DNA from: Mytilus edulis
Lineage: Eukaryota
Assembly (NCBI RefSeq): GCF_963676685.1
Contig: NC_092352.1
Span: 24,056,001-24,120,000, forward strand
DNA length: 64,000 nt
Direction of reading: 5' to 3'
Shown here: piece by piece, positions 3,575 to 55,712 of the stretch
How the letters are laid out: every line of letters starts with the position of its first letter
How positions within the stretch are numbered: position 1 is the first letter of the stretch
Made by a program: the position numbers and the translations under genes
Notes under the pieces: generated by a model
Databases searched by the model: none
The model's input: only the letters and a program-made list of their open reading frames with translations
What the model was told of the DNA's origin: nothing

Positions 3575-4655
3575 GAGTAAAATCACAAAAATACTGCACT
3601 TAGAGGAAGATCAATTGGGAAAGTCCATAATCACATGGCAAAATCAAATAACAAAACGCATCAAAAACGAATGGACAAAAACTGTCATATTCCTGACTTG
3701 GTACAGGCATTTTCAAATGTAGAAAATGGTGGATTAAACCTGGTTCTATAGCGCTAACCCTCTCACTTTAATGACAGTCTCATCAATTTCCGATATTTTT
3801 ACATTGATGCGTTAAATAAACAGACACAATAAATATAATAGTCAAAATATGGGTACATCAGTCATCATCGTTTAACAATTTTAAAAGGAACAATTTAACA
3901 GAACACAAAAACATCTACTATCTACGAACACATTTATTGATTTGAGTGTCTGACGTCAGAAAATTTTATACGTCATATAAATTTGTCGTTCAATGTACGT
4001 ACAAACAATTTTAAAATTTTCATGGGAATGTTAGCATACAGGGTTAAAAAATCAAAAGTATGTAAGAAAAAATTTAAGAAATAGACCGAGATTTAAACTA
4101 GTCCAAAAGTTATATATAGAATTTATAAGAATCCAAAAATAGTGAATTCCACTACGCGATTGAATGATTTTGACGTTTGTGGTTCAACGTATATTGTGAT
4201 TCATAATAGAAATATATCATAATGACATATAAATAGAACAATATCCTACTGACGGGATCTTTTAAAGTACAGAGTCACGTTATAAGAACAAAAGAAATAC
4301 AAAAAGTCGCAAATACAAAACAAACCACAAAAAAATGAAAGCCGATACAAACACATTGACGAGATGTATAAGTACCGAGCCACGTGAAACGGAAATCACA
4401 TGAAACCATTCAACAGTAAAAGTAATATTAATAATAGAACAAAGACAAATGAAAGAACTATAAACCACGTTGTTAAGATGATAAACAACATCAGTACGAA
4501 GAATCTATACATCAAGACCATCGTGTATTATTTGAGAAGTTGATACGGAATATTTATCAACAAGGTCTTGGTACCTTCCGATGAACTTTTTTTAGAAAAA
4601 GAACGAGACGTTCTTTGACATACCCCTGTTTCATCAACTTTCTACTCAGATAAAG
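3575..4655 (-). mobile_element. 3' end of Penelope-like (Naiad-type) retroelement: RT C-terminus plus long 3' UTR/pLTR
   Basis: Minus strand ~4652-4505 reads LSRKLMKQGYVKERLVLFLKKFIGRYQDLVDKYSVS, matching the C-termini of the PLE RT fragments at 15078-16016 and 34010-34306; the downstream sequence recurs at ~17495-17990, ~21500-22050 and ~25562-26310. Confidence 0.75.
3691..3766 (-). ncRNA. twister-ribozyme-like motif (circularly permuted)
   Basis: Minus strand GTGA-GA-GGG...TAA-TCC-AC-[CATTTTC/GAAAATG]-CCTG-TACCAAGT-CAGG-A follows the twister P2/P3/P4/L4 order. Confidence 0.5.
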
Positions 4656-13831: not shown

Positions 13832-14706
13832 ACTGTCCCCTATCAATCTCATCTTTTTCTTTAAAATCTTCTATGAACCTGGGAAAAAGGGATGGTGGGG
13901 AGTCGATGATGTCTTTTCTCTAAGTAGAGTTAGAGGGTTATGTTGATAATTTTGAGGCAAGTGCTGGTATTATAAGGGGTAAAATAATGTACTCGTATCT
14001 AAGACCTGGGGCGGATCCAGCCATTTATAAAATGGGGAGGGTGGGTTCAAACTACATGTCCTGATTCAGATGTATTAATCATCACTCGAAAAAATTAAAG
14101 GGTTCTGCTTTTTCAGGAATGAGTTCAGTATTTAATACTTTTATATGGTAAATATATTCTAAATGCGCACCATATTACACATTCACTACATGTTCTTTTT
14201 CTTATCTTATCTTATCTGAATCAATTTTTAATAAATGACTCAATTATAACGTTAATCATTTGATACCATTTCAGCAAAATTAGTACATGAGACCAAAGCA
14301 AAAACACTAAACGTTGTTTTCTGGAGTTTCTGCATGCTCTGCATTGCAATTATACTTTTGAGACGATCCCTCACATTCGCTTCACAGAAAAATTTTCTAA
14401 TATCAGGATATTAAGGACATGAAATGAGAAAAACTGTTATCTGAATGATATAATATATTGAGATGCACGCTATATATCATCAATTGCAACTTACAATTGG
14501 TAAATATGATGTAATTCCACTCTTCCCTGTCCATCCAACCTCATGCATGTAGATTCTTTGTGACGTAGAGAAATGGCGCGAATTAGTAAAGGGAGATAAC
14601 GAAAGAATAACAATGCAATACATAGTTAAAAAACACGTAATAAAATATTTCAAACGGATTATTAAAATATTTTTTCATTTTGAAAAAATAGGCAGAGCCA
14701 AATACA

Positions 14707-16016
14707 ATGAAAGTCCCAACTATGTATTGGCTTCCGAAGCTACACAAAACCCCTTACAAATATAGATTTATTTCGTCTTCAAGCCATTGTTCAACTACTA
14801 AATTGTCTATTCTTCTTACCAGCACACTTGGTACAATTAAAAACCTGATAATAAATTGTTCAAATAAGGCTTTCGAAAATAGTGGAATAAATTACTTTTG
14901 GAGTGTCAAGAACTCGTTGGAAGTACTTGATAAATTGCATGCTTATATTGGTGATTTTGAATCTGTTCAAAGTTTTGATTTTTCTACCCTGTATACCACA
15001 TTGCCTCACATTCTCATTAAGAAAAAAATCACACACCTAATTAAATGGGCATTCAAAAAATCAGAATGTGAATATATATGTTCAAACTCTCTTTTAGGTC
15101 ATTTTTTAGTAGCAATAAACAAAAAAATTATGTTAATTGGACATGCTTTGATACTATATATGCCCTTGAATTTTTACTAGATAACATTTTTGTTCGCTTT
15201 GGGGATTCCGTATATCGTCAGATTATCGGAATTCCAATGGGGACTAACTGTGCACCACTTATTGCGGACCTGTTTTTGTATTGTTATGAGTTACAATTTA
15301 TGACAAAAATAAGCAAAGACCCATCGAAACAACATCTGATAAACAAATTTAATAATACTTTTAGATATTTGGATGATATTTTGGCTCTCAATAATGACGA
15401 CTTCAGTATGTATATTAATGAAATTTATCCTGTTGAACTCACTTCAAATAAAGCTAATACTAACAATGACCACTGCCCTTTTCTCGATCTTGATATCTAT
15501 ATCACTAATGGAAAGCTGAATACTAAAATTTATGATAAAAGGGATGATTTTTCATTTCCTATCGTTAATTATCCGTTTTTAGATGGTGACGTTCCCTTGT
15601 CACCATATTACGGTGTTTATATATCTCAACTTGTACGATTCGCTCGTGTATGTAACAATGTTTTAGATTTTAACGAGAGAAATTTATGTATTACTGAAAA
15701 ATTATTACACCAGGGTTTTCGATATCACAAACTAGTCAAAACATTTACTAAATTTTATCATCGGTATAAAGACATCATTCGTAAATATAGCTCAACATGC
15801 AGACTTCTAATACGTTCAGGTATTTCACATCCAATTTTTTATGGAAATATTCTTTATAAAGCAAAAAGGTGTCAGTATTCACCTCAGAAACTTACAAAAC
15901 CTTTGAATAGACTTATTAAGAAGGGATATAATTACGATACTGTTGTCAAGTCATTAAAGATTGCATATTTTGGCGTTAATATTGAGTCACTGATAATGTC
16001 TTTGCATCGGAACTAA
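14707..16016 (+). pseudogene. PLE reverse transcriptase (frameshift near 15090)
   Basis: YWLPKLHK, FDFSTLYT, QIIGIPMGTNCAP, FRYLDDIL, FLDLDI, KIYDKRDDF. Confidence 0.9.
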
Positions 16017-24749: not shown

Positions 24750-25054
24750 TGTTCATTGTTACAATGTATATGTATGTTCAAGAAAGATAAAAGGCCTATT
24801 TTGAAGTGTCTATTCATTGTTACAATGTACATTTATGTTTAAGAAAGGTAAAAGGGCTATTTTGAAGTGTCTATTCATTGTTACAATGTACATTTATGTT
24901 TAAGAAAGGTAAAAGGGCTATTTTGAAGTGTCTATTCATTGTTACAATGTACATTTATGTTTAAGAAAGGTAAAATGGCTATTTTGAAGTGTCTATTCAT
25001 TGTTACAATGTACATTTATGTTTAAGAAAGGTAAAAGGGCTATTTTGAAGTGTC
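24750..25054. repeat. 61-bp minisatellite, 5 copies
   Basis: Unit TATTCATTGTTACAATGTACATTTATGTTTAAGAAAGGTAAAAGGGCTATTTTGAAGTGTC. Confidence 0.95.
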
Positions 25055-25561
25055 TTAAAACAGGTTTTCGGTCATTATGAGCTCTAGTAATATTTGTTAA
25101 AAGTCTATCCGTTTAACAAAGATGTCAGTTTGTATACGTGTTTTATACTTGTTAGCTTGCAGATGTATTATTAACCACACAACACTCTTTTAGAATTTGT
25201 AGAATCATTAATATAATGTTGTTTATATATGCGATGTTAAGCAGCAGTTTATGGACAGTACACGTTCTGTCGTGATATAGTACCGACAACAAGCTATTAC
25301 ATGCCCCGCTGCTAAAGTTGCCGGTTTTTCAAAAAGTGGCTTAATCGTATATCGGAACGGCGCAATAATGCAAACAGATGACATGCAAGATAGTCGAAGA
25401 GATTTACAACAGACATTCGCAGCTGTGTGTCATCATACTGCATTGCCAGTTACAGATGTATATAAGGCCCTGACATTATAAAGTGTAAAACATGCAAACG
25501 ATAAATCTATGGACCTAAACACAAAACACATATATCTTATACATGTAGATTTCTACCTGTA

Positions 25562-34606: not shown

Positions 34607-35870
34607 TTATACCCCACGCAACGAAGTTGCGGAGGGTATAGTGTTTTTGACCCGTCCGTCCGTCAGTCCTGTTTCTTGTCATCGCAACTCCTCTCAAACC
34701 ACACAACAGAATTTCACGAAACCTTTTCAGATAATAAGGACATACTATGTAGTTGTGCATATCGACGGGAAATTGCGATTCAATTTTTTTTCTAGGAGTT
34801 ACGCCCCTTTGAACTTATTTACTTTAATGTATTACTGCAACAGTTTGTCATCGCAACTCCTCTCAAACCACACAACAGAATTTCACGAAACCTTTTCAGA
34901 TAATAAGGACATACTATGTAGTTGTGCATATCGACGGGAAATTGCGATTCAATTTTTTTTCTAGGAGTTATGCCCCTTTGAACTTATTTACTTTAATGTA
35001 CTACTGCAACAGTTTGTCATCGCAACTCCTCTCAAACCACACAACAGAATTTCATGAAACTTTGTAGATAATAAGGACATACTATGTAGATGTGCATATC
35101 AACAGGAAATTACGGTTCAATTTTTTTCTAGGAGTTACGCCCCTTTGAACTTATTTACTTTAATGTATTACTGCAACAGTTTGTCATCGCAACTCCTCTC
35201 AAACCACACAACAGAATTTCACGAAACCTTTTCAGATAATAAGGACATACTATGTAGTTGTGCATATCGACGGGAAATTGCGATACAATTTTTTTTCTAG
35301 GAGTTACGCCCCTTTGAACTTATTTACTTTAATGTATTACTGCAACAGTTTGTCATCGCAACTCCTCTCAAACCACACAACAGAATTTCACGAAACCTTT
35401 TCAGATAATAAGGACATACTATGTAGTTGTGCATATCGACGGGAAATTGCGATTCAATTTTTTTTCTAGGAGTTATGCCCCTTTGAACTTATTTACTTTA
35501 ATGTACTACTGCAACAGTTTGTCATCGCAACTCCTCTCAAACCACACAACAGAATTTCATGAAACTTTGTAGATAATAAGGACATACTATGTAGATGTGC
35601 ATATCAACAGGAAATTACGGTTCAATTTTTTTCTAGGAGTTATGCCCCTTTGAACTTATTTGCTTCAATGTACTTCTGCAACAGTTTGTCATCTCAACTC
35701 CTATGAAAACACACAACAGAATTTCATGAAATTTTGTAGATAATAAGGACATACTATGTATATTGACAGGAAATTATTATTCAATATTTTTTCTTATACT
35801 TATTTAATTTCTCCAATGACAATGTGGGGACGTGGGGTATGTGAGCGTGCTCACTAAGGTTCTTTAATTT
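34604..35870 (+). mobile_element. Helentron-associated non-autonomous element (HINE/DINE-like) with internal satellite
   Basis: Subterminal IR ATACCCCACG (34609-18) / CGTGGGGTAT (35831-40), 5' hairpin CGCAACGAAGTTGCG, (GTCC)n tract, 3' hairpin GTGAGCGTGCTCAC, T-rich ends. Confidence 0.75.
34677..35790. repeat. ~168-bp tandem repeat, ~6.6 copies
   Basis: Unit begins TTGTCATCGCAACTCCTCTCAAACCACACAACAGAATTTC. Confidence 0.95.
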
Positions 35871-39916: not shown

Positions 39917-42775
39917 ACTTTTTATTGTTAACTGTACAAAACGACGAGTCCTATTTGTTGTAATCCTAGCCAGGTTTCTGATGTCCCGGCTAGCGGGACA
40001 GGAGTATACACAGGATAACGGCGCTCCCGCAAAGAAAGTCTGAGATCCTGCATTTAAAAGTCGCAAGTCGTCCTATCGACGGGTCTAGCGGTCGGTATAA
40101 TCTGTTCAGCTGGTTTGCCTAGGTGTCAAGATCAGTGGATAAATATATGAAATCATCTTCGGCAAATTTGCTTCTTGTATTGTTCTCTGTTTTTGTTACA
40201 TGGCTAGCATAGGAATGGTCTGCTTCAAAAGATGCTCTATGTGTTGTTTCTTTTTTGTTTCAATTGAACTCTATCTTGAATAAATTTGGATATTTTTTTA
40301 ACATAGTTTGATGGAGAGAATCGCCCATTGTGATTTCTAATGGATGGCATAATTTTTTTATAGAAGACGTTTGGGTTTTGCTCGTTGTTGAAGGCCGTAC
40401 GGTGACCTATAGTTGTTAATTTCTGTGTCATGTTGGTCTCATTGGCAATCATACCACATCTCCTTTTTATTAATGACCTCAATTCTAATTAATATATTGT
40501 CTTGTATGTGATATAATTTTAGTTCATTTATAGGTTTTTGATTGTGACGTCCATTTTCTCTGAATTAGAACACAAATTTTAATTAGGGCCTATGTTGTGT
40601 CTTCTTGCTGTGCTGAAGACCTATCGGTGGCCTTCAGCTGTGTTCTGCTCTTTTATCAGGTTGTTGTCTCTTTGACATATTCCCCATTTCCATTCTCTAT
40701 TTTATTGCATACTAATTTTTTTAACTATTGATGTTAAAATTAGAAGATAAACCAATCATATTTTAAAGAAAAATCACAAAGAAGCACAATTAAAAGTAGA
40801 TGATAATTGACTGTATTGTGAAACTATAATAATATAATTACCATATGCCTTGGTGTGCAATTCAATTATTTGATCCTCATAATCACTCAATATATTCAGA
40901 CAATCCTCATTTTTTATTCATCTTTGAGCATAATTTTTAATGTGAACCTGTTGTTTCTTTGACATACTGTCATTGTAACGTAAATAAAGAAAACATATAA
41001 GCCTTATATTCAGAGTAGGAATAAAGGATTAAATGAGTGAAGGAGAAGGCATTGTTTCTAATACATTTCATTTGTAATGAGATTGATGATTTATCCTATG
41101 AAAGTAAATGAGCCAGAGATTCAGTTATTATTATTATATTCAAGTTATCTGATATTTGCTCTGGATTTTTTGCAAAATCTGCGTACACAAATTAAAACAG
41201 ACAATATGTCTAGTTTTTTTAATATTATTTGTAGTGTAAATATTGACATCTATTTGTTTTAGGTAAACTATCAAATGTAAAGCATTATTTAAGCAAAATG
41301 TGTAACAAAATTATGAAACTTTTTTCCAAAGTTCAGAGTTAATACTGGTACCGATGTGCTATGTGTTGTGGTAAAAAAAATTCAGCCAATTAAATTCATC
41401 AGTCACAAAGAAGACGACCCAATAGCACTTTCTTTACGTCATTCATGTTAACTGTTTCACTGTCATTCAAAACAAACATGTCTATGTCTTCTAGTCTTAC
41501 ATTTTCACAGTCTTGCAATACAGATGAAAGAACCCATTTTTCTTCGTTTAATGCACATTTGATATAATGTTTAATGCATCTCGGGTAAGTAAAGCGTCAT
41601 TCTCTTGAAATTCCCACTTGTTCAGTCTTCTTTTTTTCAGTTTTATTATTTCTTCCTCTAGTATGAATTTTTCTTTCTGTACAGTCAACACGTCATACTG
41701 CTTCCGTGATGGCATTTCTTGAAGTCCTCAATGGTTTCTTCTCGGGTTAAGGAGTACTAGTAAATATTGGCAAATAAATTACAGTTGCGGTTAAACATGT
41801 ATCAGAAATTGCAATGGCGGCAGTACATGTATCGGCATGGTGCTTTCAAACTCTGCATCATATAGCGTATATCTTCCACATTTCTTACGACTGGGATAAA
41901 AAAAAAATCTACATTTTGTCGACATTTATATTATATATCTGAATAGACATTGAGAGCATATATATATATTGTGACAAGTAACCCCCAGGGCATATATTTT
42001 TTTATTTTTATATTATGCTGTAAATATGTTATTTCCTTGTTATAGATAAGATATATGTTTTGAATTGTTAAGAATGTTATTTATTCTATATGAGTCCTAA
42101 GTTCCTATGATAATAGAACTAAAATATTTGTTTATTGTTCATTGAAGAGATATTTTCATAAAATAATCCAAGTCAGAATTGTTTTCATTTTTGCATAAAT
42201 TGTAAACATCAAGATTTTTGTTAAAATGACTTTCCATATATTTTTATGTTTACCTAGTCTTGGTAAATGCTTTAATAATTGTGTTGTGTATTGACTTGTA
42301 TCAACAAATGGATAGAACATGAGAAATATTGTGATATTTAGATTTTTGAGACTTGTTGTTATTTTGAGAAAGTTCCCGTACTTTTTCATCTGTAACTTTT
42401 TCGGGATCGACCCCACTTTAGACATACTTTCTGTCAATTTTGGACAATGACAGCCAAACTTACTTATATACACTCTTTTCGAAAGTCGAATTGAGTTTGA
42501 GAATTTACTTTTCCCCACTGAAGGTTATGCATTTTGCTTAAACTTGTCGATCTTCGTTTCTGTTACAGACAGCATGTATCGCTATCCGCCATTACTTCAG
42601 ATGAACGGCTAGCGATTTCATAGGTTGATTAAAAGAATAAAGTATTTTACCTTAATTTTTGTAGAAATTGTTATAGAAATGTTTTATTTTACGATTAATG
42701 TTAGAAAATGTAAAAGTTTATATTTTAATAACTTTGTATTCTTTGTCGATTCAACTTGTTAAAGAATGGAGCTTT

Positions 42776-42930
42776 TTGATTGGCTATTGGTTACTGTGCA
42801 CTGTGCAAGATGGGGCACTTAAGGGTATCGTGCATGCCCCTGTGCGGTACATTTGCACTGTCGTGCAGTGGCGGGTATTATATAACCTTTCGAAAACGCT
42901 GCACTGACGTCACTTTCACGCCATTTTATT
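42776..42930 (+). promoter_or_regulatory. putative LTR core promoter
   Basis: Two ATTGG (CCAAT) boxes ~42779-42790, TATATAA 42879-85, CRE TGACGTCA 42905-12 overlapping Inr-like TCACTTT (A at 42912), YY1-like CGCCATTTT 42919-27; same in the 3' LTR. Confidence 0.55.
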
Positions 42931-43303
42931 AGGGATTGAACCGCTGCCAAAATTTTATTAGAAAGTAAGGCCAATTTTTACGTTTAGAAACTTATTTATT
43001 TAACTAAATTTTCTTATTGGAAAAACGTAATTTTACAGAGATTTTAATGATAATTTCTAGAAGTTTATTTTCATTTCAAAAGTAACTTTTAAAGGCTGTT
43101 TTACGAATTTATGGTTCAAAATTTCATTGTTTTGGAATTGTAAAGTTTTGTTTAAGTACATTTTACCGGAAAGTTAGATTTTTCTATTTAAGAGTCCAAA
43201 GCCAATCAAACTATTTTTGCGTTTAAATTATAGACTGTGTTATAGGATTTTAAAGGTATATCTGAGAGTTCTTTGCTACACTTTTATTGTCCTCTATTTT
43301 ACA

Positions 43304-44342
43304 AGACATACGCTACTAGTAAAGTCTCTAGTACACTTGTCTACATTTACGCAAATTAAATATATTAGATAAGGTAATAGGGACACAAAACATACGCTAC
43401 TAGTAAAGTCTCTAGTACACTTGTTTTGTTTAAATAACTATAAATAGGGAGATTAGTTAAAAGACATACTCTACTAGTAAAGTCTCTAGTATTTTGTCGT
43501 GATTAAAATAATTGGAATAAGGATAAAGGGCTTACGCTACTAGTAAAGTTTCTAGTACATTTGTCCTGTTTAAATAACAGTTACTGTATAAATAGGGAGA
43601 TTAGTCAAAAGACATACACTACTAGTAAAGACTCTAGTATATTTGTCCTGTTAAAGTAATTAAGATAAGGATAAGGGTCTCAGGACTACACTGCTAGTAA
43701 AGTCTCTAGCAATTGTCTTGAAGTAAATAAGAAAACCAAGTTACAGATAAACACTATTTTGAGTAAACTTTGAGATAAATTAGATGGCATATGCTGCTAG
43801 TAAAGTCTCTAGCACAATTGTCATAATAGCTTAAATTTGTATAAACTGAGATTAATTGATTTTCTCTTCATAAATCTATTTGTACATTCATTTACAAGTA
43901 AATACTAAAACACCTTTAGATCTAAGGCATACGCTCTAGCACAGGGTCAGCTAGCACACTTGCCTCTAAATTTTGTACACCTGATAACGCTCTAGCACAG
44001 GGTCAGCTAGCACACTTTCTTGTGTACTAAAGTTATAACGTTTATAATAAAGAATTTAATACATTAAAAACCTTTTAGAACTTAGGCATACGCTCTAGCA
44101 CAGGGTCAGCTAGCACACTTGCCTCTAAATTTTGTACACTTGATAACGCTCTAGCACAGGGTCAGCTAGCACACTTTCTTGTGTATTAAACTGTTGAATA
44201 TTCTTATTGTCTATGTAACGTTACCAATTTAAACTTAGAAGTTAGGTACTCAGTTAAACCTTTAAGTGATATATATATACCTCAGATATACCTTGTTAAT
44301 ATTAGACATACGCTACTAGTAAAGTCTCTAGTACACTTGTCT
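43304..44342 (+). repeat. array of 12 conserved stem-loops in the 5' LTR
   Basis: Eight copies of type TACGCTACTAGTAAAGTCTCTAGTACACT and four of type ACGCTCTAGCACAGGGTCAGCTAGCACACT, each closed by its own complementary outer stem. Confidence 0.9.
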
Positions 44343-44742
44343 CTTTGTTATATGTAATATTTGCTACTGGTCTCATTGTTATATACCAGTGTCAGTGTAT
44401 CTGAAGAAAACCCTAGTCAAATAATAAACACACTATTGTTATTCATATTTTTATTGGTTAACGGTAGTCCTTTAATAGTCCATTATATATATTGAAAGTG
44501 ACCATAACATCAGGCCAATAATAAAGTATTGAACTTCAAAACGTATTTCCCTTTACTTTAGATTTTAACAAATCTAGCGAGACATAGAGTTTGCTTTTCC
44601 AGTTATTATATCTGGTTTATTGTGTCACCTCAGTTGGTTCTGATTTTGAGATTTAGTCTTGGGTCAAGGTCTTGTGTACGTTCATTGTTTGGGAGTTTGC
44701 TGACAACCTTATTTGCCATATAGCTCTTGCGCGCTACATTTT

Positions 44743-44760
44743 TGGCATCCTCGGTGGGAT
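44743..44760 (+). promoter_or_regulatory. primer binding site
   Basis: TGGCATCCTCGGTGGGAT, 4 nt after the LTR; complement of a tRNA 3' end with discriminator G; isoacceptor not identified (Arg or Asn possible). Confidence 0.85.
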
Positions 44761-44804
44761 CTGCTTGTCATTTGCGGATCCAGTGATACGAATATCTTTT
44801 AATT

Positions 44805-46487
44805 ATGGTAAAAAGGAAGAATCCAGCACTACCCAGACCAGGTGAAAGGAGCGAAATAGACACAGAGACGGATGCCATCGAGACTGACACAGATTGTAAT
44901 ATGTACACAGACTTTTCAGAGCCAGAAACTGACGACAGAGATGTTACAGTAATACCAAAAGTAAGCGTGATAAACTTGCCCAGCACTAGCTCTATACCAA
45001 TTAGTTCAGATATCAGACCAAGAAGAAGTTTGAGACTGTCCAGGAAGAGAGAAGTCCACACAGAGAGTGAGAGAGAAGAACCTGAAATGCAAAGTCATGG
45101 TGACACAGCTGGTGTTTATGGTATAATTAAAGGGGCATTTCAAGAAATGACCGGTCAATTGGTGACAGCAATCCAATCAGCATTCAAGGGTTTCCACAGT
45201 GATACCAAGTTAACTGAAAAGGGGGAGACTAGAAAAGCAAAGAAAAGACCAACAAAGTCCAAAAGTGACCCAGGCAGATTACATCCTGTGATGTCCAACT
45301 TTGCCATCCAGTCAGACAGTGATGATAGTTCAGATGAAAGCAGCTATGAAGATTCTATAGAAGGCAGTATAGATACATGTTACATAACAGAACCCAAAAG
45401 AAAACCTGCTATGTCTAGTAATGTTAAATTACCTGCTTATATAGGCAAAGAAAAATGGGAGGTGTACTACAATAGATTTGAAGCTGTTTCTAAACTGAGT
45501 CATTGGGACGACAACACCAAATTAGCAGAGCTACTTCCTCGTCTACAAGGAGAAGCAGGTGACTTTGCCTTTGATCAACTTGCCCAAAGAACATTATCAA
45601 GCTATACTAGATTAACCAAAGAGATACACAACAGATTTGGAACTTTCGAGACCAAGAAAAACTACAAAACATTGTTTAATAGACGAAACCAGAAATCTGA
45701 CGAGAAACCAGAGGCTTATGCAGCAGAGCTGAAACGGATTTATGACAAAGCTTACAAAAACAGAGATATGAAAATTAGGCAAGAGGACCTGTTACAAAGA
45801 TTTCTGATGGGACTTTCTGACCATGACAGTAGGGTCCATGTGGAGCTATGTAAAGAACCAAACACCATTGAAGAAGCAGTGCAAGAAGTTATCACTTTTA
45901 CTGAAGCTATAAGTCCACAAGAAGACCATACAGTAAGCAAATTTAAGAAGCAAGTTAGGCAGGTTAAGGGAAAACAGAAAACTTACAGTAAAAAGGGCAA
46001 AGACAAAGGAAAGAAACAAGATGACCAATCACTTAGTGAAGACAGTGACCAACCTAACCCTCCTAAACCAGGATTCACCACTGTAGATATTGAACAAATT
46101 AAAGATATAATAAAGCGAGTAAACCAGGAGCAAAGGAGAGATGAAAACATACAGAAACCAAATGGGTACCAGGGGAACTCCCATTTTAGCTCTTCACCAA
46201 ATTATGTACCAGATTCTAACAGTTACAATAGAAGAGAAAACATAAATACTGCAAATCCACCAAGTCAACAGGGGTATGGTAGTCAAGATACAAAGACAAA
46301 TTTTGCTTGTTATTATTGTGGCCAGCCAGGAAATTTTGCCAGGAACTGCTTTAGTAACCCAAAAAGACAACCCGACTTTAAAAGAAGCCAACCATGGAAT
46401 GAAGGAAGAACAAGGGAGGTTACTCCACCAACTCTAGATTTTAGGTCAGGGAAAACTGAGTCTTTCCCTGAAATAGCTTTAAACTAG
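44805..46487 (+). CDS. gag: Gag (560 aa)
   Basis: KLPAYIG..WEVYYNRFE, LQGEA, RNQKSDEKPEAYAAEL capsid-like region; zinc knuckle CYYCGQPGNFARNC (His replaced by Asn). Confidence 0.9.
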   Translation: MVKRKNPALPRPGERSEIDTETDAIETDTDCNMYTDFSEPETDDRDVTVIPKVSVINLPSTSSIPISSDIRPRRSLRLSRKREVHTESEREEPEMQSHGDTAGVYGIIKGAFQEMTGQLVTAIQSAFKGFHSDTKLTEKGETRKAKKRPTKSKSDPGRLHPVMSNFAIQSDSDDSSDESSYEDSIEGSIDTCYITEPKRKPAMSSNVKLPAYIGKEKWEVYYNRFEAVSKLSHWDDNTKLAELLPRLQGEAGDFAFDQLAQRTLSSYTRLTKEIHNRFGTFETKKNYKTLFNRRNQKSDEKPEAYAAELKRIYDKAYKNRDMKIRQEDLLQRFLMGLSDHDSRVHVELCKEPNTIEEAVQEVITFTEAISPQEDHTVSKFKKQVRQVKGKQKTYSKKGKDKGKKQDDQSLSEDSDQPNPPKPGFTTVDIEQIKDIIKRVNQEQRRDENIQKPNGYQGNSHFSSSPNYVPDSNSYNRRENINTANPPSQQGYGSQDTKTNFACYYCGQPGNFARNCFSNPKRQPDFKRSQPWNEGRTREVTPPTLDFRSGKTESFPEIALN

Positions 46488-46542
46488 AGAGGGTCAACTC
46501 CAATGACCAGGAGCTGACCCAGGGTTTTCAGGAGAAAGGTCA
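46478..46542 (+). promoter_or_regulatory. -1 programmed ribosomal frameshift signal
   Basis: T TTA AAC slippery heptamer directly before the gag stop, 6-nt spacer, stem GGGTCA-A-CTCC / GGAG-C-TGACCC; loop TGACC complementary to GGTCA at 46538-42; -1 frame is open into pol. Confidence 0.85.
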
Positions 46543-49500
46543 AATTTTGAGAGAGGAGAATAAAGAAGTGTTACTTAGCAGCAGTAGTTCAGTAGAGGTT
46601 TTTAGTAGAAATAAAAGTAGTTTTAATGAGGTTATTGATTTCTCACAGGGTGAGAATGAAAATTTATGTTCAAGCTGTGACGACAGCAGTGAACAAAACT
46701 TGATTAGTCCACAATTTATTGGACGTCAAGTACTCCGCAGCGAAGGAGTTTATATTGAGGGTCATGTGCAAGGCACTGAAGTGAATTTTACAGTTGATAC
46801 AGGGGCCTCTCGAACAGTGTTATCGAGAAGGGCTTTTCAACAAATACCATTTGCTAAAAGACCCCTCTTAAAGAAGTCAAATATGCTGGCTAGTGCCGAT
46901 GGCAAACCACTACATGAGTTAGGGAAAGCCATTTTTGACATCAAATTAGGAGATTTACCTTTTGAGATTGAAGTTGTAGTTGCAGAGATTGAGGACGAAG
47001 CCTTGTTGGGTCTTGATGTACTTATGAAGGCAGATTGTGGACCAGCTAATTTAAGATTAAGCGACGGGATTATGCTGCTAGGTGATACTTCCATTCCCTG
47101 TCAACAAATTGGCTTACCTGAAAGAGTAAGAAAAATTAGAGTAGCTGATAATTTTTCTATACCGCCCAGAAGTGAAATGCTTATAGATGTTTTTATAGAT
47201 AGATATGAAGATGACCAAATTTTAGGATCCTTTGATTTTGTTTTAGACCCCACTGAAGATATATTACAGAGATACCCCGTTGTTATGGCCCCTACTATAG
47301 TTAACATTGAAAAAGATGTAACCAGTTTAGTTAGAATATTAAAACCTTTTGATACAGAGTTTACTTTATATCAAGATACAGTTATTGGAGAAGCTGAAAG
47401 CTTGATAAAGGAACCAGAAATTTTAGTTTCATGCGAAGATAAAGCTGAAGTCAGTAATTTTTCAGTAGTTAGACGTATTAAATTAGGTGACCATAAACCA
47501 GTTCAGTGGGAAACCAACACGGGAATTATTAGGAACATTTCAAAGAAAGGGACTGCAGATGGTGGGAAAAGTGGTATTGTTCCTGATCACTTACAGGATT
47601 TATTTTTAGAATCTACTAAAGAACGTTCAGCAGAAGAATGTGATATTATTTGTAATTTATTAAATAAATTTTCAAATGCTTTTTCTAAAAATGACATGGA
47701 CCTTGGTTTAACTAATTTAACAGAACACTGTATAGAGACAGGGGATGCCAGACCAGTGAAGCAGCCACCATGAAGAGTACCTGTGGCCTATGCTAATGAG
47801 GAAAAGAAGTTGGTAGACCAGATGTTACAACAAGGGATTATCCAGAAATCGCACAGTCCATGGGCATCTCCACTGGTTTTGGTTGTGAAGAAGTCTGGTA
47901 AGCTGAGACCATGCTGCGATTTTCGCAGGCTAAACAAGCTAAGTCGGCTCGATAGTTATCCTATTCCACGCATACAGGACTGCCTGGATACTTTGAGTGG
48001 TTCTACCATTTTCAGTACTTTTGATTTGATCAGTGGTTTCAATCAAATCCCTGTAAAGAAAGAAGACATCCCTAAGACTTCATTCGTGACTAAGTATGGT
48101 CTATTTGAATACAAAACTCTCCCTTTTGGTCTTTGTAATGGGCCGTCCACCTGTCAAAGACTAATGGAATTAGTTTTAAACGGTTTACAGTGGCAAACTT
48201 GCCTAATTTACCTGGACGACATTATAGTCTTCTCCCCTAGTTTTGACCAGCATATTGAAAGACTAGAAGAGGTGCTCCTTAGAATTTTGGAGGCAGGGTT
48301 AAAGCTGAAACCAGAAAAATGCACTATGTTAAAGTCAGAAGTTGCATTTCTTGGTCATGTTGTATAATGGAAAAGGGGTTCAATTAAATCCAGATAACAT
48401 TGCCAAAATTTTAGCTTGGTCAGTGCCAACAAATGTAACTGAAGTCCGTCAATTAGTTGGGATGGGTAGCTATTATCGTCGTTTTATTAAAGATTTTTCT
48501 TCTCTTGTGAAGCCTCTAACAGAGCTCACTAAGAAGTCAAATGCATTTATCTGGTCGAATGAGTGCCAAAAATCTTTTGAACAACTTAAAGAAGTATTTA
48601 TGAGTCCAGAAATAATGGGATATCCTTTAGACAAGGGAGATTTTATATTAGATACGGATGCAAGTGATTTTGCCATTGGAGCAGTTTTGAGCCAAATTCA
48701 AGATGGAAGACCCAGAGTGATCGCTTATGGCAGTCGTACCTTAAATAAAGCTGAGTGCAATTATTGCGTGTCAGGACTGACCACCAGGCCTTGATATGGT
48801 TATTTAGCCTTAAAGAGCCTAAGGGCAGGATTGCCCGGTGGATTGAAATACTATCCGCTTTTGATTTTACTGTAGAATATAGACCAGGCCCCAAACATGG
48901 AAATGCAGATGCTATGTCACGATGCATAAACCCCCGTGAGTGTGATTGTCCCCAAACAGACCATATGGAATATTTGAAATGTGGTCCTTGTGCGAAATGC
49001 ACAAGAAGAGCTCGTGACATGGTGACTTCCATGATTTCCCCCCCCCCCCCTTTTATAGAAGAAAAGAAAGTTTTTAAAAGTCTTAATGTAGTAAAGACAA
49101 GGAAACAGACAGAGGAAGCTAATACTTGGACCATTTGGAAAACAGGACATACTATACCAGAGCTAAAGAAATTACAAGAGGAAGATGAAGCCATTGGCCA
49201 TATTTTTAAATGGAAAACAGATGGGAAGAGACCGCCATGGAGAGATGTGGAAAGTTTGAGTCCAGCTACCCGACATTATTGGCACCTTTGGGAATCCTTA
49301 TTTTTTAAAGAGAATTTACTCTTTAAAGAATTCTCTAAGCGAGATGAAACTGCTGACCAAATACAGTTTTTAACCCCACAGAAATTGAAACCTGAAATTT
49401 TAGCTCAAATGCATAATTCCATTACATCTGGGCATTTGGGAAGGAAAAAGACAAAGGCAAAGCTTTCCCAGAGATTTTATTGGTATGAGATGAGAGAGGA

Positions 49501-50494
49501 CATCACCATATGGTTAGCAAAGTGTGATATTTGCCAGGCAAATAAATCTCCAGTAAAAGGATACAGGGCCCCTTTAGGAAGTATGCCTACTGGTGGACCA
49601 TGGGATAGATTGGCTACTGATATTTTAGGCCCTCTTCCTGTCACACCAAGACATAATAAATATGTTTTAACGGTAACAGACCATTTTACAAAGTGGGTCG
49701 AGGTTTTTCCTGTACAGGACTCCACTGCTGTTACCTGTGCTTACTTGATTTTAAATGATGTTATATGTCGTTATGGTTGTCCACTTGCCTTACACTCTGA
49801 TCAAGGTCGCAACTATGAAAGTGATATTTTTCAAGAGCTGTGTTCTATGTTAGACATTAGAAAAACAAGAACCAGTGTAAGAAATCCAAAGGGTAATGGT
49901 CAAACATAGCGATTTAATCGTAGTTTACTGTCTATGATTAAATCTTATTTACAAGGTGAACAGACAGACTGGGATTTAAATCTTGGTTGTCTTGCAGGTG
50001 CTTACCGGTCTACTCCGAATGCATCTACAAGTCTTACTCCTAACTTGTTGATGTTAGGAAGGGAAATCAGGTTTCCAGTTGAGGTGATACAAGCAAAAGT
50101 TTCGGTTCAAGGTGAAGTCCAAGTAAATCCAGGCGATTTTGTCTGTGAATTAAGAGAGAGGTTGCAAAAGGCTCATAGTGTTGCCAGAAAACATTTATCA
50201 GCAAATGCTAAAAGGCGTAAAGATTACTATGACCAGAAAGTAAACTTTGTCATTTATAATATTTTTGATAAGGTTTGGTACTTAAACAAGACAAGGAAGG
50301 AAGGCATAAGTCCAAAACTTCAACCCTTATACTTGGGACCTTGCCTTATTACCAAAAAGTTGAATGAAATTAATTTTGAAATACAACTAGATGCTAAGGG
50401 AACCAGAAAGGTTATTAATCATAACAAGTTGAAACCTTACATTGGTGAAAACATACCCAAGTGGATGAAAATAGTTGAAAAACAAATTTCTTAA
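46478..50494 (+). pseudogene. pol: Pol (PR-RT-RNase H-IN), disrupted
   Basis: VDTGAS, YLDD, LDTDAS, HHCC, DILGP/SDQG; TGA at 47771-73, frameshift ~48362, deletion plus frameshift in RNase H ~48770, TAG at 49907-09 replacing the integrase catalytic Glu. Confidence 0.95.
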
Positions 50495-50883
50495 CTGTTG
50501 TTAATGGCCGGTTAAACTCCATTATCCTTTGTCTGTACTATACTTGAGTGATGAACTGAAAATTTAAAAATAAATTTTTGTAAATATCAGTAGAGATATC
50601 AAATATGAATTCATTATTTTTATGAATTCTTCCAAAGAAATCTAACTTGACAAGTTAGGGATCAAATTTATATTTTGCTTACCAATATGAAAATTGTTAA
50701 GTATTTAATTTTATTTTAAATAATATAAACTTGGTGTATGAAATTTTTATATACCGTTTAATAAGTATGTAATTATCTCCCCTGTATAAAGCTAAAATAA
50801 ACTTCAGATACACTGCCAGGTTATTTCTGGGACCAGACCTATTAAACTGGACAAGAGTTTTAAAGGTCCTATACTCTTTTTAG

Positions 50884-52140
50884 ATGAGTTTCCAGTATGA
50901 TGCCGCCAAGGCCAAGAGAAGGGCAACCATCTGTCTTCTCTGTACTGATTCTCCTGCTTATATGGGCCAGAAGCATAGAGTTGTAACACACATTTTGGTG
51001 AACCATGTGTCAGTTTCGAGAACACATTACTTCTGCACACTTTGCCAGTTTAGATGCACCAACATGGATACTCTGAAACAGCATGTGAACTTTCATAGGC
51101 CTCATCAGACATTGAAGGATAGCTTTTCAGCCTTGCCAGACAAGGACTACTTTCTTATCTCAGATTCACCTTACTTCCCGCAGGCAGGAAGAGATTTTAA
51201 ACTGTTGCCTAGGCAGAGACCCGGTTTGGGCACTACAATAGACCCAGTAGAATTGAGTTCAGGAAGCAGTACTGGTGGAGTATCGCCTCCCACTGTACCA
51301 ACATGTGTGATACCAGAACGACCAGTAGGAAGGGCCACTGTTTACATACCATCTTTTATGCCACCACCAGAACCAGTCCAGTTTGTAAATTACACTTCTC
51401 CATCTGATATTTCCTCATCTCTACCTCCACCTCCTTTCGACTTCAACCCAGGACACTGGTCATCACCCTCCATCCAAGCTTCACCACCCTTGCCAACAGA
51501 AACCAACATTGTTCAGGAAATAATACAGGAGAACCAGGCTGCCCTTGGGATGGACCTCCAGTACACAAACACCATAGATTTTTTTGATTTACCAGAATCG
51601 CCATTGGTATCCACACCAGAACTGGCCTCTCCAGTGAGGAACATCATTATGAGAGACAGAGAAATAGGGGAAGAGGAAAATTTGTTGCCCCAGCTGTTAG
51701 GTGATAGCAACCCACCTGTATCACCCTCAACAAACCATCCAGCCACGGAATGGAATGGTGTTCCTCTTAGTCAAGGTCCAGAACTTCATTCATCCTCATC
51801 CTCCTCTTCATCTTCATCATCATCTTCATCTGATTGCTCTGCTCTGGGAGAGGTGAAACAGTCAATATCCACTTTACTAGAGAACACTGCGGCAGAGCAT
51901 TCAAAGACCAGAGAAAGTATTGGCCAGTTGGGCACGGTTATTGAAAGTCTGGTGTCGCAGGTACAGGGTTTGAGATCAGTGGTAAGGGAGCAAGGGGATG
52001 AAATCAGGAGATTAAAGAACGATCGACCGAACACAACTACCATCGTAAACAGATCCAGAATTCAGCAAAGGCGCCGGACGCCGACACCCAGCAGACAGAG
52101 ATTTGGCCATCCACTTCCACCTGCAAAAAGAAGAAGATAA
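50884..52140 (+). CDS. ORF3: double C2H2 zinc-finger protein with Pro/Ser-rich region, coiled coil and basic/NLS tail (418 aa)
   Basis: CLLC-x15-H-x4-H and CTLC-x12-H-x3-H; heptad-like IGQLGTVIESLVSQVQGLRSVVREQGDEIRRL; RRRTPTPSRQR and PPAKRRR; no signal peptide or TM segment seen. Confidence 0.85.
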   Translation: MSFQYDAAKAKRRATICLLCTDSPAYMGQKHRVVTHILVNHVSVSRTHYFCTLCQFRCTNMDTLKQHVNFHRPHQTLKDSFSALPDKDYFLISDSPYFPQAGRDFKLLPRQRPGLGTTIDPVELSSGSSTGGVSPPTVPTCVIPERPVGRATVYIPSFMPPPEPVQFVNYTSPSDISSSLPPPPFDFNPGHWSSPSIQASPPLPTETNIVQEIIQENQAALGMDLQYTNTIDFFDLPESPLVSTPELASPVRNIIMRDREIGEEENLLPQLLGDSNPPVSPSTNHPATEWNGVPLSQGPELHSSSSSSSSSSSSSSDCSALGEVKQSISTLLENTAAEHSKTRESIGQLGTVIESLVSQVQGLRSVVREQGDEIRRLKNDRPNTTTIVNRSRIQQRRRTPTPSRQRFGHPLPPAKRRR

Positions 52141-52925
52141 ACTTGTTATATTTAGGGTATTATAAATTTTAGGTAAATATTTAGGGTAAAATGGTAGAAA
52201 ATCATGAAATCAATTTGAAATTATGTAAGGGAGAGTAAATTAAAAACATTTTTAAATGTTATCCAGCTAAATAATGGTTTTATTCAAGAGATTTTATAAG
52301 TATTGAAAAATTTTCAGAAATCAAGTTTATAATTGTTTAATTCAAATTGTTACACTTTTAAAAATAAAACATACCTTTCTGTTCAATCATTTTCTTTTAA
52401 ATTCATTAGATCAATAGCATTTCCTGTCATACTGAAAAATATAATTTTAGATTTAGCTATGTGTTACTTATAGCATGGTAAAGGGTCGATCATTTATTGT
52501 TGTGTATTTTAAACTGTATGTATTAAAGTAAAGTAATATGATATAGTTAATATTGTATTGGATAATGGTTGTGGATGTACCTAGTTAAATGGTGATACAT
52601 TATTAGAAAAGAAATTTTAGAAATTATTTTTACTGTTAAATTACTATAGTAAAGTAAAGAAATTATTACTTAACTCATGAGTTTCTTAAAGATACGTACC
52701 TTCACTTTGGAAAACGTCTCTGCTTTAATTTATTTATGACTAAACACTAGTCATAATTTGTTGAAGAAATATTTTGGTGACAATAAATATAAATTTTTGA
52801 TATTTACAAGATAAATATTTGGATGTAATAAATTTTGAAAAATGTGGAAAGCTTTTCAAAGGTGACACGATACAGGGAGAAGATGTTTTCTAGTCCGTCC
52901 AATTTGTGGGGACACAAATTTTAAC

Positions 52926-52937
52926 AGGGGGGTAAAA
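52926..52937 (+). promoter_or_regulatory. polypurine tract
   Basis: AGGGGGGTAAAA abutting the 3' LTR; preceded by hairpin AATTTGTG-GGGA-CACAAATT (52901-20). Confidence 0.8.
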
Positions 52938-55712
52938 TGTGACAAGTAACCCCCAGGGCATATATTTTTTTATTTTTATATTATGCTGTAAATATGTTAT
53001 TTCCTTGTTATAGATAAGATATATGTTTTGAATTGTTAATAATGTTATTTATTCTATATGAGTGCCAAGTTTCTATGATAATAGAACTAAAATATTTGTT
53101 TATTGTTCATTGAAGAGATATTTTCATAAAATAATCCAAGTCAGGAATGTTTTCATTTTTGCATAAATTGTAAACATCAAGATTTTTGTTAAAATGACTT
53201 TCCATATATTTTTATGTTTACCTAGTCATGGTAAATGCTTTAATAATTGTGTTGTGTATTGACTTGTATCAACAAATGGATAGAACATGAGAAATATTGT
53301 GATATTTAGATTTTTGAGACTTGTTGTTATTTTGAGAAAGTTCCCGTACTTTTTCATCTGTAACTTTTTCGGGACCGACCCCACTTTAGACATACTTTCT
53401 GTCAATTTTGGACAATGACAGCCAAACTTACTTATATACACTCTTTTCTAAAGTCGAATTGAATTTGAGAATTTACTTTTCCCCACTGAAGGTTATGCAT
53501 TTTGCTTAAACTTGTCGATCTTCGTTTCTGTTACAGACAGCATGTATCGCTATCCGCCATTACTTCAGATGAACGGCTAGCGATTTCATTGGTTGATTAA
53601 AAGAATAAAGTATTTTACCTTAATTTTTGTAGAAATTGTTATAGAAATGTTTTATTTTACGATTAATGTTAGAAAATGTAAAAGTTTATATTTTAATAAC
53701 TTTGTATTCTTTGTCGATTCAACTTGTTAAAGAATGGAGCTTTTTGATTGGCTATTGGTTACTGTGCACTGTGCAAGATGGGGCACTTAAGGGTATCGTG
53801 CATGCCCCTGTGCGGTACATTTGCACTGTCGTGCAGTGGCGGGTATTATATAACCTTTAGAAAACGCTGCACTGACGTCACTTTCACGCCATTTTATTAG
53901 GGATTGAACCGCTGCCAAAATTTTATTAGAAACTAAGGCCACTTTTTACGTTTAGAAACTTATTTATTTAACTAAATTTTCTTATTGGAAAAACGTAATT
54001 TTACAGAGATTTTAATGATAATTTCTAGAAGTTTATTTTCATTTCAAAAGTAACTTTTAAAGGCTGTTTTACGAATTTATGGTTCAAAATTTCATTGTTT
54101 TGGAATTGTAAAGTTTTGTTTAAGTACATTTTACCGGAAAGTTAGATTTTTCTATTTAAGAGTCCAAAGCCAATCAAACTATTTTTGCGTTTAAATTATA
54201 GACTGTGTTATAGGATTTTAAAGGTATATCTGAGAGTTCTTTGTTACACTTTTATTGTCCTCTATTTTACAAGACATACGCTACTAGTAAAGTCTCTAGT
54301 ACACTTGTCTACATTTACGCAAATTAAATATATTAGATAAGGTAATAGGGACACAAAACATACGCTACTAGTAAAGTCTCTAGTACACTTGTTTTGTTTA
54401 AATAACTATAAATAGGGAGATTAGTTAAAAGACATACTCTACTAGTAAAGTCTCTAGTATTTTGTCGTGATTAAAATAATTGGAATAAGGATAAAGGGCT
54501 TACGCTACTAGTAAAGTTTCTAGTACATTTGTCCTGTTTAAATAACAGTTACTGTATAAATAGGGAGATTAGTCAAAAGACATACACTACTAGTAAAGTC
54601 TCTAGTATATTTGTCCTGTTAAAGTAATTAAGATAAGGATAAGGGTCTCAGGACTACACTGCTAGTAAAGTCTCTAGCAATTGTCTTGAAGTAAATAAGA
54701 AAACCAAGTAACAGATAAACACTATTTTGAGTAAACTTTCAGATAAATTAGATGGCATATGCTGCTAGTAAAGTCTCTAGCACAATTGTCATAATAGCTT
54801 AAATTTGTATAAACTGAGATTAATTGATTTTCTCTTCATAAATCTATTTGTACATTCATTTACAAGTAAATACTAAAAAAAACCTTTAGATCTAAGGCAT
54901 ACGCTCTAGCACAGGGTCAGCTAGCACACTTGCCTCTAAATTTTGTACACCTGATAACGCTCTAGCACAGGGTCAGCTAGCACACTTTCTTGTGTACTAA
55001 AGTTATAACGTTTATAATAAAGAATTTAATACATTAAAAACCTTTTAGAACTTAGGCATACGCTCTAGCACAGGGTCAGCTAGCACACTTGCCTCTAAAT
55101 TTTGTACACTTGATAACGCTCTAGCACAGGGTCAGCTAGCACACTTTCTTGTGTATTAAACTGTTGAATATTCTTATTGTCTATGTAACGTTACCAATTT
55201 AAACTCAGAAGTTAGGTACTCAGTTAAACCTTTAAGTGATATATATATATATACCTCAGATATACCTTGTTAATATTAGACATACGCTACTAGTAAAGTC
55301 TCTAGTACACTTGTCTCTTTGTTATATGTAATATTTGCTACTGGTCTCATTGTTATATACCAGTGTCAGTGTATCTGAAGAAAACCCTAGTCAAATAATA
55401 AACACACTATTGTTATTCATATTTTTATTGGTTAACTGTAGTCCTTTAATAGTCCATTATATATATTGAAAGTGACCATAACATCAGGCCAATAATAAAG
55501 TATTGAACTTGAAAACGTATTTCCCTTTACTTTAGATTTTAACAAATCTAGCGAGACATAGAGTTTGCTTTTCCAGTCATTATATCTGGTTTATTGTGTC
55601 ACCTCAGTTGGTTCTGATTTTGAGATTTAGTCTTGGGTCAAGGTCTTGTGTACGTTCATTGTTTGGGAGTTTGCTGACAACCTTATTTGCCATATAGCTC
55701 TTGCGCGCTACA
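52938..55712 (+). repeat. 3' LTR (2775 bp)
   Basis: Direct repeat of 41970-44738. Confidence 0.97.
54272..55316 (+). repeat. array of 12 conserved stem-loops in the 3' LTR
   Basis: Copy of 43304-44342. Confidence 0.9.

Follow-up and report, generated by a model that had tools for sequence, protein, structure and literature searches.

The stretch analysed here (the window: 64,000 nucleotides of Mytilus edulis, assembly GCF_963676685.1, contig NC_092352.1, positions 24,056,001 to 24,120,000 of the forward strand) contains a Ty3/Gypsy long terminal repeat (LTR) retrotransposon of the Metaviridae at 41970-55712. This assignment is based on its TG...CA LTRs, a 4-bp ATAT target duplication, a primer-binding site (PBS) and a polypurine tract (PPT), both in place, and the order of the pol domains. 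The element is young, as its LTRs of 2769 and 2775 bp differ by 23 mismatches in 2769 columns (0.83% divergence). A third open reading frame (ORF3) follows pol and each LTR harbors a row of small stem-loops. A first-pass annotation had described one Gypsy element combining an open, non-env ORF3 with 12 hairpins per ~2.77-kb LTR, and this description is confirmed in sequence and fold. The annotation overlooked the stops and frame changes in pol, and also that the start of ORF3 lies directly behind a splice-acceptor signature. The features are the following:

41970..44738, + strand: 5' LTR, 2769 bp, with predicted U3 of ~940 bp, R of ~1.6 kb and U5 of ~0.2 kb
42875..42916, + strand: predicted core promoter, composed of a TATA box, an AAAACGC block and an ACGTCA initiator-like site
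42962..42970, + strand: predicted major splice donor, ~55 nt after the start
43306..44340, + strand: 12 RNA stem-loops in the order seven type A, four type B, one type A
44520..44530, + strand: polyadenylation-signal block of the 5' LTR, AATAAAGTATT, conserved in families A, B and C
44743..44760, + strand: PBS, beginning with TGG just past the LTR, common to families A, B and C
44805..46487, + strand: gag, 560 residues, one zinc knuckle, open
46472..50494, + strand: pol (PR-RT-RNase H-IN), interrupted by two stops and two frame changes
50868..50883, + strand: pyrimidine tract and TAG abutting the ORF3 ATG, predicted splice acceptor
50884..52140, + strand: ORF3, 418 residues, open
52121..52374, - strand: candidate antisense intron, GT..AG (seen in a single contig, with a 30-letter side, from a run presumed to be RNA)
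52923..52937, + strand: PPT
52938..55712, + strand: 3' LTR, 2775 bp, with a second 12-unit array at ~54274-55314

The borders of R and U5 derive from motifs and not from RNA mapping. Along pol, the Pfam families RVT_1, RT_RNaseH, Integrase_H2C2 and rve occur in this order; protease families were matched on close homologues.

Stem-loop arrays in the element and its relatives

The 12 units of each LTR share a CTAG-loop-CTAG pattern, which is confined within the window to the plus strand of the two LTRs. Eight units are of type A, with a 6-bp inner stem and a 4-8-bp outer stem, and four are of type B, with a 5-bp inner stem and an outer stem that is missing in two of them. All 12 fold as local hairpins, and the fold of the first seven surpasses that of every one of 100 dinucleotide shuffles (z -2.6). 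AAAGT(C/T) words close a stem in 9 of 14 occurrences in the LTR as compared with 4 of 256 in background. A search of Rfam over 41900-45000 gave 0 matches at E<=1.

The promoter arrangement is common to family A, to which the window element belongs, and to families B and C, although the LTRs of the three otherwise barely align. Donor-like AAA/GTAAG sequences are located at +56, +57 and +51 in families A, B and C, and the poly(A) block AATAAAGTATT lies at 170-220 nt from the LTR end in all three. The hairpins therefore sit, by prediction, in the long R region between these two signals. The donor of family I is non-canonical. In a reverse transcriptase (RT) tree of 44 rows (three short rows left out), A, B and C cluster (91/80) and family I is their sister (95/90).

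The number of units changes between families. By strict pattern, family A LTRs have 5-22 units, some of them partial or decayed, family B has 1-3 and family C has one. The LTRs of A and B, which otherwise share only a few short blocks, have one 19-nt unit in identical form. Family I contains five to six hairpins with unrelated stems of 5-13 bp, all with the loop AAGG(A/T). Of these words, which were picked after being seen, 6 of 11 close a stem; the corresponding counts are 3 of 458 for background and 0 of 4 for the antisense strand. The array folds at z -6.0. In short-LTR families with ORF3, the arrays are found after the PBS and comprise 16 units in T, 11 in V, seven in U, seven in D, 9-12 in F and eight in S. 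The loop is the same in T and U, whose stems differ by a compensatory change; A, T, U and F have in common a two-stem unit with an internal loop. Furthermore, a distant metagenome element presents six GACTA loops on five stems. Loops of different families include AAAGTC, AAGG(A/T), A(C/T)TGA, TGCATTTAG and GACTA.

The same loop is carried by unrelated stems in families I and S and at locus L133. Among units selected for having a stem, the arms of these three form 65 of 66 pairs with their own partner, compared with 3.3 of 6 for mismatched arms. The sense-strand pairs of 27 distinct stems from eight families comprise 137 Watson-Crick, 13 G-U, 0 A-C and three other pairs, stems within one family not being independent. 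The fold scores of five arrays range from z -3.6 to -6.7, values inflated by repeats, versus -0.6 and -1.0 in controls. Taken together, these data support the hairpins as RNA structures, conserved and lying 3' of the predicted promoter, because the loop is kept while stems change and G-U beats A-C by 13 to 0 on the sense strand. The 12-unit CTAG array can no longer be regarded as a fixed partner of ORF3, since other families differ in their loop and often place the array after the PBS. From these sequence comparisons, the array with 12 units is family-specific and the array principle is wider.

Some further arrays deserve mention. At L203 (G000:C4:52569500-52574500), a family-A LTR of ~3.5 kb with 22 units has been enlarged by 142-bp dimers. 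A separate repeat, a 48-nt tandem whose four units fold weakly, lies in the predicted R region of family C (L043:rc 3290-3460). A hairpin in the leader of family E was dropped as it lies in a deletion copy, and an AACGT-type DNA motif, considered as a candidate common to the LTRs, was not among the ranked enriched 5-mers.

The third open reading frame and its message

ORF3 comprises two C2H2-type fingers (residues 15-75), a disordered middle part rich in proline and serine, a coiled coil at about residues 321-381 and a basic end resembling a nuclear localization signal. The finger region is modelled confidently, with a predicted local distance difference test score (pLDDT) of 86. This layout supports a nuclear-type protein. 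Judged from sequence, ORF3 is not an env gene, because a hydrophobic segment is absent from all 56 full-length-like homologues (0 of 56 above 1.8; the maximal 19-residue hydropathy of ORF3 itself is 0.95). The ratio of nonsynonymous to synonymous substitution rates (dN/dS) was estimated for six within-family pairs: five fall at 0.06-0.10 and the remaining one, a near-identical copy, at 0.43. The fingers and the coiled coil are the most constrained parts in diverged pairs. By these ratios ORF3 is a real gene under strong purifying selection.

Homologues of ORF3 are numerous. Its first 120 residues retrieve 240 representatives at E<=0.001, some of which are ordinary multi-finger proteins. A search of its own genome gave 58 matches, and integrase lies directly upstream in most of the 30 loci fetched. 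In metagenomes, the ORF3 profile matches downstream of 10 of the 15 closest integrase relatives; four of the five misses have less than 330 nt of downstream DNA and the fifth has a finger ORF by pattern. ORF3 represents an unnamed family located behind integrase and a splice-acceptor signature in many marine-invertebrate Gypsy families. Unnamed clusters and mixed C2H2 families were returned by an Atlas search, Foldseek gave no match at E<=0.001, and no Pfam family exceeded the cut-off in 33 members (zf-met matched weakly in 5 of 33).

The fingers do not follow the classical Kruppel-type spacing (tandem C-x2-4-C-x12-H-x3-5-H). In 51 of 56 homologues the histidines of finger 2 have the spacing H-x6-H, five of these also fitting x3-5, and finger 1 has a longer loop. 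The best structural matches of finger 2 are RNA-binding fingers of the matrin/U1/JAZ type, though weak (Z 3.6-4.0, rmsd 1.6-3.4 over 37-41 residues). The first-pass annotation assumed that ORF3 oligomerizes through its coiled coil, and structure prediction agrees: a parallel homodimer is predicted with a score of 0.52 versus 0.00 for the best control (pLDDT 78). Runs agree in at least 89% of contacts; 7 of 16 solved animal pairs and 0 of 30 single chains attained the score mark. The predicted dimer may reflect memorization by the model. An ILxQLL-like motif is present in 14 of 56 homologues, against 0.4 in shuffled sequences. As a separate observation, a KSxV-type basic tail ends 14 of 56 homologues (P0016-P0131 tails) versus 3.4 shuffled.

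The ORF3 message is predicted to be spliced. In the own-genome ORF3 families shown, the ATG is preceded by a pyrimidine tract and YAG (by eye), and the acceptor signature occurs at 25 of 35 metagenome finger ORFs as compared with 29% of background ATGs. RNA data are sparse. Three raw-read RNA runs returned next to nothing beyond partial, low-complexity matches. A fourth run, made of contigs and presumed to be RNA, spanned 28 of 30 bins, and every GT..AG joint in it was on the minus strand. These joints connect a strong minus-strand donor in the 3' untranslated region to acceptors at the ORF3 end (52121-52374) and inside the LTR (44413-52374), with one contig each and no long antisense ORF, suggesting a spliced antisense RNA across ORF3 and the array. 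The short segment 52121-52374 is present in the genomic copies compared. Thirty loose letters that precede ORF3 in this contig run were ruled out as an exon, since they are an indel also found in other genomic copies. Depletion of leader ATGs, marked in A (6 versus 22) and lacking in B (14 versus 19), is partly a repeat effect and was not used as evidence.

When ORF3 of the window is compared with L037/L038 and L009, its synonymous divergence is 0.8-1.4, far above the 0.13-0.17 of gag/pol in the one pair where both were available, and flanking non-coding DNA is ~90% identical. These values point to lineages having exchanged alleles of ORF3.

An acceptor-led C2H2 ORF after pol is also present in more distant Gypsy families, whose RT is 50-60% identical. 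These ORFs (examples: L201:rc 2651-4380, L241:6077-6499, L242:6484-6900, L122-L179) encode canonical double or single C2H2 fingers which are unmatched by the A1 profile, and a post-pol finger ORF was found in 35 of 59 metagenome loci versus five antisense. Gypsy elements of the ORF3 clade also occur inside records labelled as bacterial symbionts (L181, L182; P0152, P0208, P0230, P0257, P0279), most likely as a result of host contamination. Elsewhere in the window, broken non-LTR reverse transcriptase-like open frames are seen by eye at 14692-16013, and tandem arrays lie at 34676-35760 (169 bp x 6.4) and 24752-25055 (61 bp x 5).

A possible mechanism and its alternatives

We propose that a single LTR promoter would generate two RNAs. 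Splicing of the donor ~55 nt after the start to the ORF3 acceptor, a putative joint, would produce the mRNA of a nuclear, dimeric zinc-finger protein, and the unspliced RNA would keep the row of stem-loops with its family-specific loop, located downstream of the donor. ORF3 dimers may then bind several loops at once and alter the fate of this unspliced RNA. Changes in unit number by tandem duplication would probably tune avidity. That the loops are private to each family argues, without proving it, for a reader encoded by the element. Likewise, the Gag knuckles of A, B and C are nearly identical although the loops differ, which argues for ORF3 rather than Gag as this reader, again short of proof. 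We consider that spliced ORF3 dimers binding the array and controlling unspliced RNA stand only slightly below an even chance. As for the outcome, gag-pol/genomic RNA might escape splicing, early polyadenylation in the 1.6-kb R or nuclear retention, by analogy with Rex or CERV, and this specific outcome is on the unlikely side. Alternatively, ORF3 could act on transcription from the nascent RNA in the manner of Tat, which appears distinctly unlikely; control of unspliced RNA is the somewhat likelier of the two.

Several observations weigh against ORF3 as the reader of the array. The pairing of ORF3 and array put forward in the first-pass annotation stands only in part. In the tally of 12 own-genome families (covering this ORF3 type, with T/V, D/E and I/P each counted once), seven have at least five units in the 5' untranslated RNA, two have 1-3 units, namely the sister families B and C, and three have none found. 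The latter are G, Q and H, the H LTR being only partly covered. For S and P, the copies analysed carry a decayed ORF3. No array was found in L181, R and L242, and arrays were flagged in only 2 of 14 metagenome 5' regions. In decayed family-I copies, stems are 10.7% variant versus 7.9% for spacers, hence without stem conservation; loops are better kept, with 4.8% variant. At L241, a finger ORF occurs together with a leader repeat that stays unfolded (z -0.7). Four families had been intended as ORF3-less controls: two proved to have a C2H2 ORF after pol, one was insufficiently covered and one truly lacks it. This single family also has a short repeated leader motif, unfolded at z +1.1, so leader repeats as such are not specific. 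Repeats in the leaders of Drosophila Gypsy elements are bound by host proteins.

Further points concern the RNA and the protein. Unit free energies in A-C favour sense in 29 and antisense in 46 of 77 cases, and the sense splice joint was not seen in four runs of very low coverage. The finger profile matches the DNA-binding C2H2 proteins CTCF and Ikaros by sequence; the ORF3 protein alone would fit DNA as well as RNA binding, because its sequence leads to CTCF and Ikaros and its fold to matrin/U1/JAZ. A PxDLS-like motif, which we take to be of the CtBP type, is present in 9 of 56 homologues versus 0.4 shuffled and would fit a role in DNA binding or transcription. A loose pattern for a leucine-rich export signal gave four weak matches in ORF3, none convincing.

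The main rival is a separation of the two parts, in which the arrays would be packaging or dimerization signals read by Gag and ORF3 an independent regulator binding DNA or chromatin (activator, repressor or anti-silencing factor). Retroviral packaging signals classically lie between the PBS and gag, where the arrays of the short-LTR families are found, and the A-C stems contain self-complementary words. The resemblance of ORF3 to DNA-binding C2H2 proteins, the PxDLS-like and ILxQLL-like motifs of some homologues and the families lacking arrays would also fit. However, R is the predicted location of the hairpins in A, B, C and I, so that the spliced ORF3 mRNA would carry them at its 3' end as well, which makes them a poor mark of the genome. 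The near-identity of the A, B and C knuckles in the face of differing loops and the unfolded leader motif of the ORF3-less family also speak against Gag, and we regard this separation as unlikely, if worth taking seriously. A contact with ORF3 would equally be dispensable if the hairpins recruited a host RNA-binding factor, following the logic of a constitutive transport element, or shaped the choice of poly(A) site. Simple retroviruses export unspliced RNA via host NXF1 on a structured element (PMC12789967). In foamy viruses, the choice between 5' and 3' polyadenylation depends on RNA structure at a donor that precedes the poly(A) signal (PMC3694450), a layout which A-C match. A single host factor should nevertheless keep a single loop, yet loops vary by family, so that this explanation is improbable.

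The units might also act as double-stranded DNA sites (enhancer, insulator or VANC-type anti-silencing) for ORF3 or host zinc-finger proteins, their fold being incidental. Each A-C unit is indeed also a direct repeat of a short half-site, the targets of VANC are tandem repeats varying among related elements (PMC5735166), and L241 combines a C2H2 ORF3 with a leader repeat that does not fold. This is quite improbable in our view: pairing and loop are retained in I, S and L133 despite a complete change of the arms, the G-U excess is on the sense strand, and the half-sites are spaced variably by 11-15 bp. Neutral template slippage at hairpins during reverse transcription would explain the unstable unit number of family A and one decayed D-family copy that lost the array and the gag start together. 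It is very improbable, as a 19-nt unit has stayed identical between otherwise barely similar A and B LTRs and fixed loops on unrelated stems need selection. Among these alternatives, ORF3 as the reader of the array is the interpretation that we rank first.

Comparison with known systems and significance

According to the first-pass annotation, typical Gypsy elements have only gag-pol, with or without env; this overlooks CERV of Cer1 (PMC10309623) and the ORF3s of rotifers (PMC5408684). CERV of the Caenorhabditis elegans Gypsy/Ty3 element Cer1 is needed for export of unspliced RNA; it is a non-env accessory protein, made from a spliced mRNA, nuclear, multimerizing by a zipper and with a candidate zinc finger (PMC10309623). 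Similar traits are seen or predicted in ORF3. In contrast to ORF3, CERV has exons in common with gag, its domains include a C4-type loop and a G-like domain, and its homologues are limited to nematodes; its RNA target is not defined in the accessible text (PMC10309623). On the basis of their descriptions, the two proteins also differ in that ORF3 has a gene of its own behind pol and two fingers of the C2H2 type. Bdelloid rotifer ORF3s are also non-env genes after pol with a typically spliced message, but they are esterase, exonuclease or membrane proteins, and the word 'zinc' does not occur in the accessible main text (PMC5408684).

A spliced regulator and a structured cis element in or near the LTR are combined in HTLV Rex/RexRE, HIV Rev/RRE and Tat/TAR, and MMTV Rem/RmRE; TAR lies in R and RexRE in the 3' LTR (PMC12789967). 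These elements are single complex structures, whereas here, as known from sequence alone, small stem-loops occur in variable number with family-specific loops and a zinc-finger protein. Regulators of the Rex/Rev type bind RNA through an arginine-rich motif. A structured cis element on the unspliced RNA, as in export systems, was found here as well, with covarying stems, fixed loops, a sense G-U bias and a position 3' of the predicted donor. In the foamy virus LTR, the major donor is upstream of the poly(A) signal in both LTRs, so that 5' polyadenylation must be suppressed (PMC3694450); unlike in foamy virus, ~1.5 kb and the hairpin array lie here between the predicted donor and poly(A) signal. 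Finally, VANC proteins of Arabidopsis VANDAL elements are element-encoded and have tandem-repeat targets that differ between related families (PMC5735166). VANDALs are DNA transposons with DNA motifs, whereas the conserved feature here is RNA structure. By analogy, the ORF3/array system would work most like CERV and Rex/Rev and evolve like VANC/VANDAL.

Literature searches, with Repbase and most subscription journals outside their range, gave no description of this ORF3 or its arrays. The words ORF and zinc are absent from the accessible main text of mollusc and annelid surveys (PMC6238403, PMC8556966), and the pair is not described in the accessible parts of PMC13524379, PMC12440569 and PMC2774666. 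One mollusc survey set an LTR maximum of 1500 bp (PMC6238403) and would miss long-LTR families because of this limit. No relative of the integrase was found in IMG/VR. We conclude that ORF3 and its array represent a genuine and conserved variant of complex-retroelement regulation that has probably not been described before, and for which we hypothesize a link between protein and RNA.

The nuclear exit of intron-containing LTR-retrotransposon RNA is understood in few elements. It is possible, though somewhat doubtful, that a large marine-invertebrate branch of Gypsy consists of complex elements, each family having a spliced zinc-finger regulator and a matching array with a private loop that diversified together. 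Cognate versus non-cognate loops offer a sharp test across families. Even without binding of ORF3 to the array, both the protein family and the arrays of fixed loops on variable stems appear undescribed in the searchable literature. If the proposal is true, regulation in the style of complex retroviruses would be common in invertebrate Gypsy elements and Rev/Rex-like control would have an independent origin. The families would then form a natural library of orthogonal zinc-finger/RNA-hairpin pairs, which might yield pairs of RNA tags and binders.

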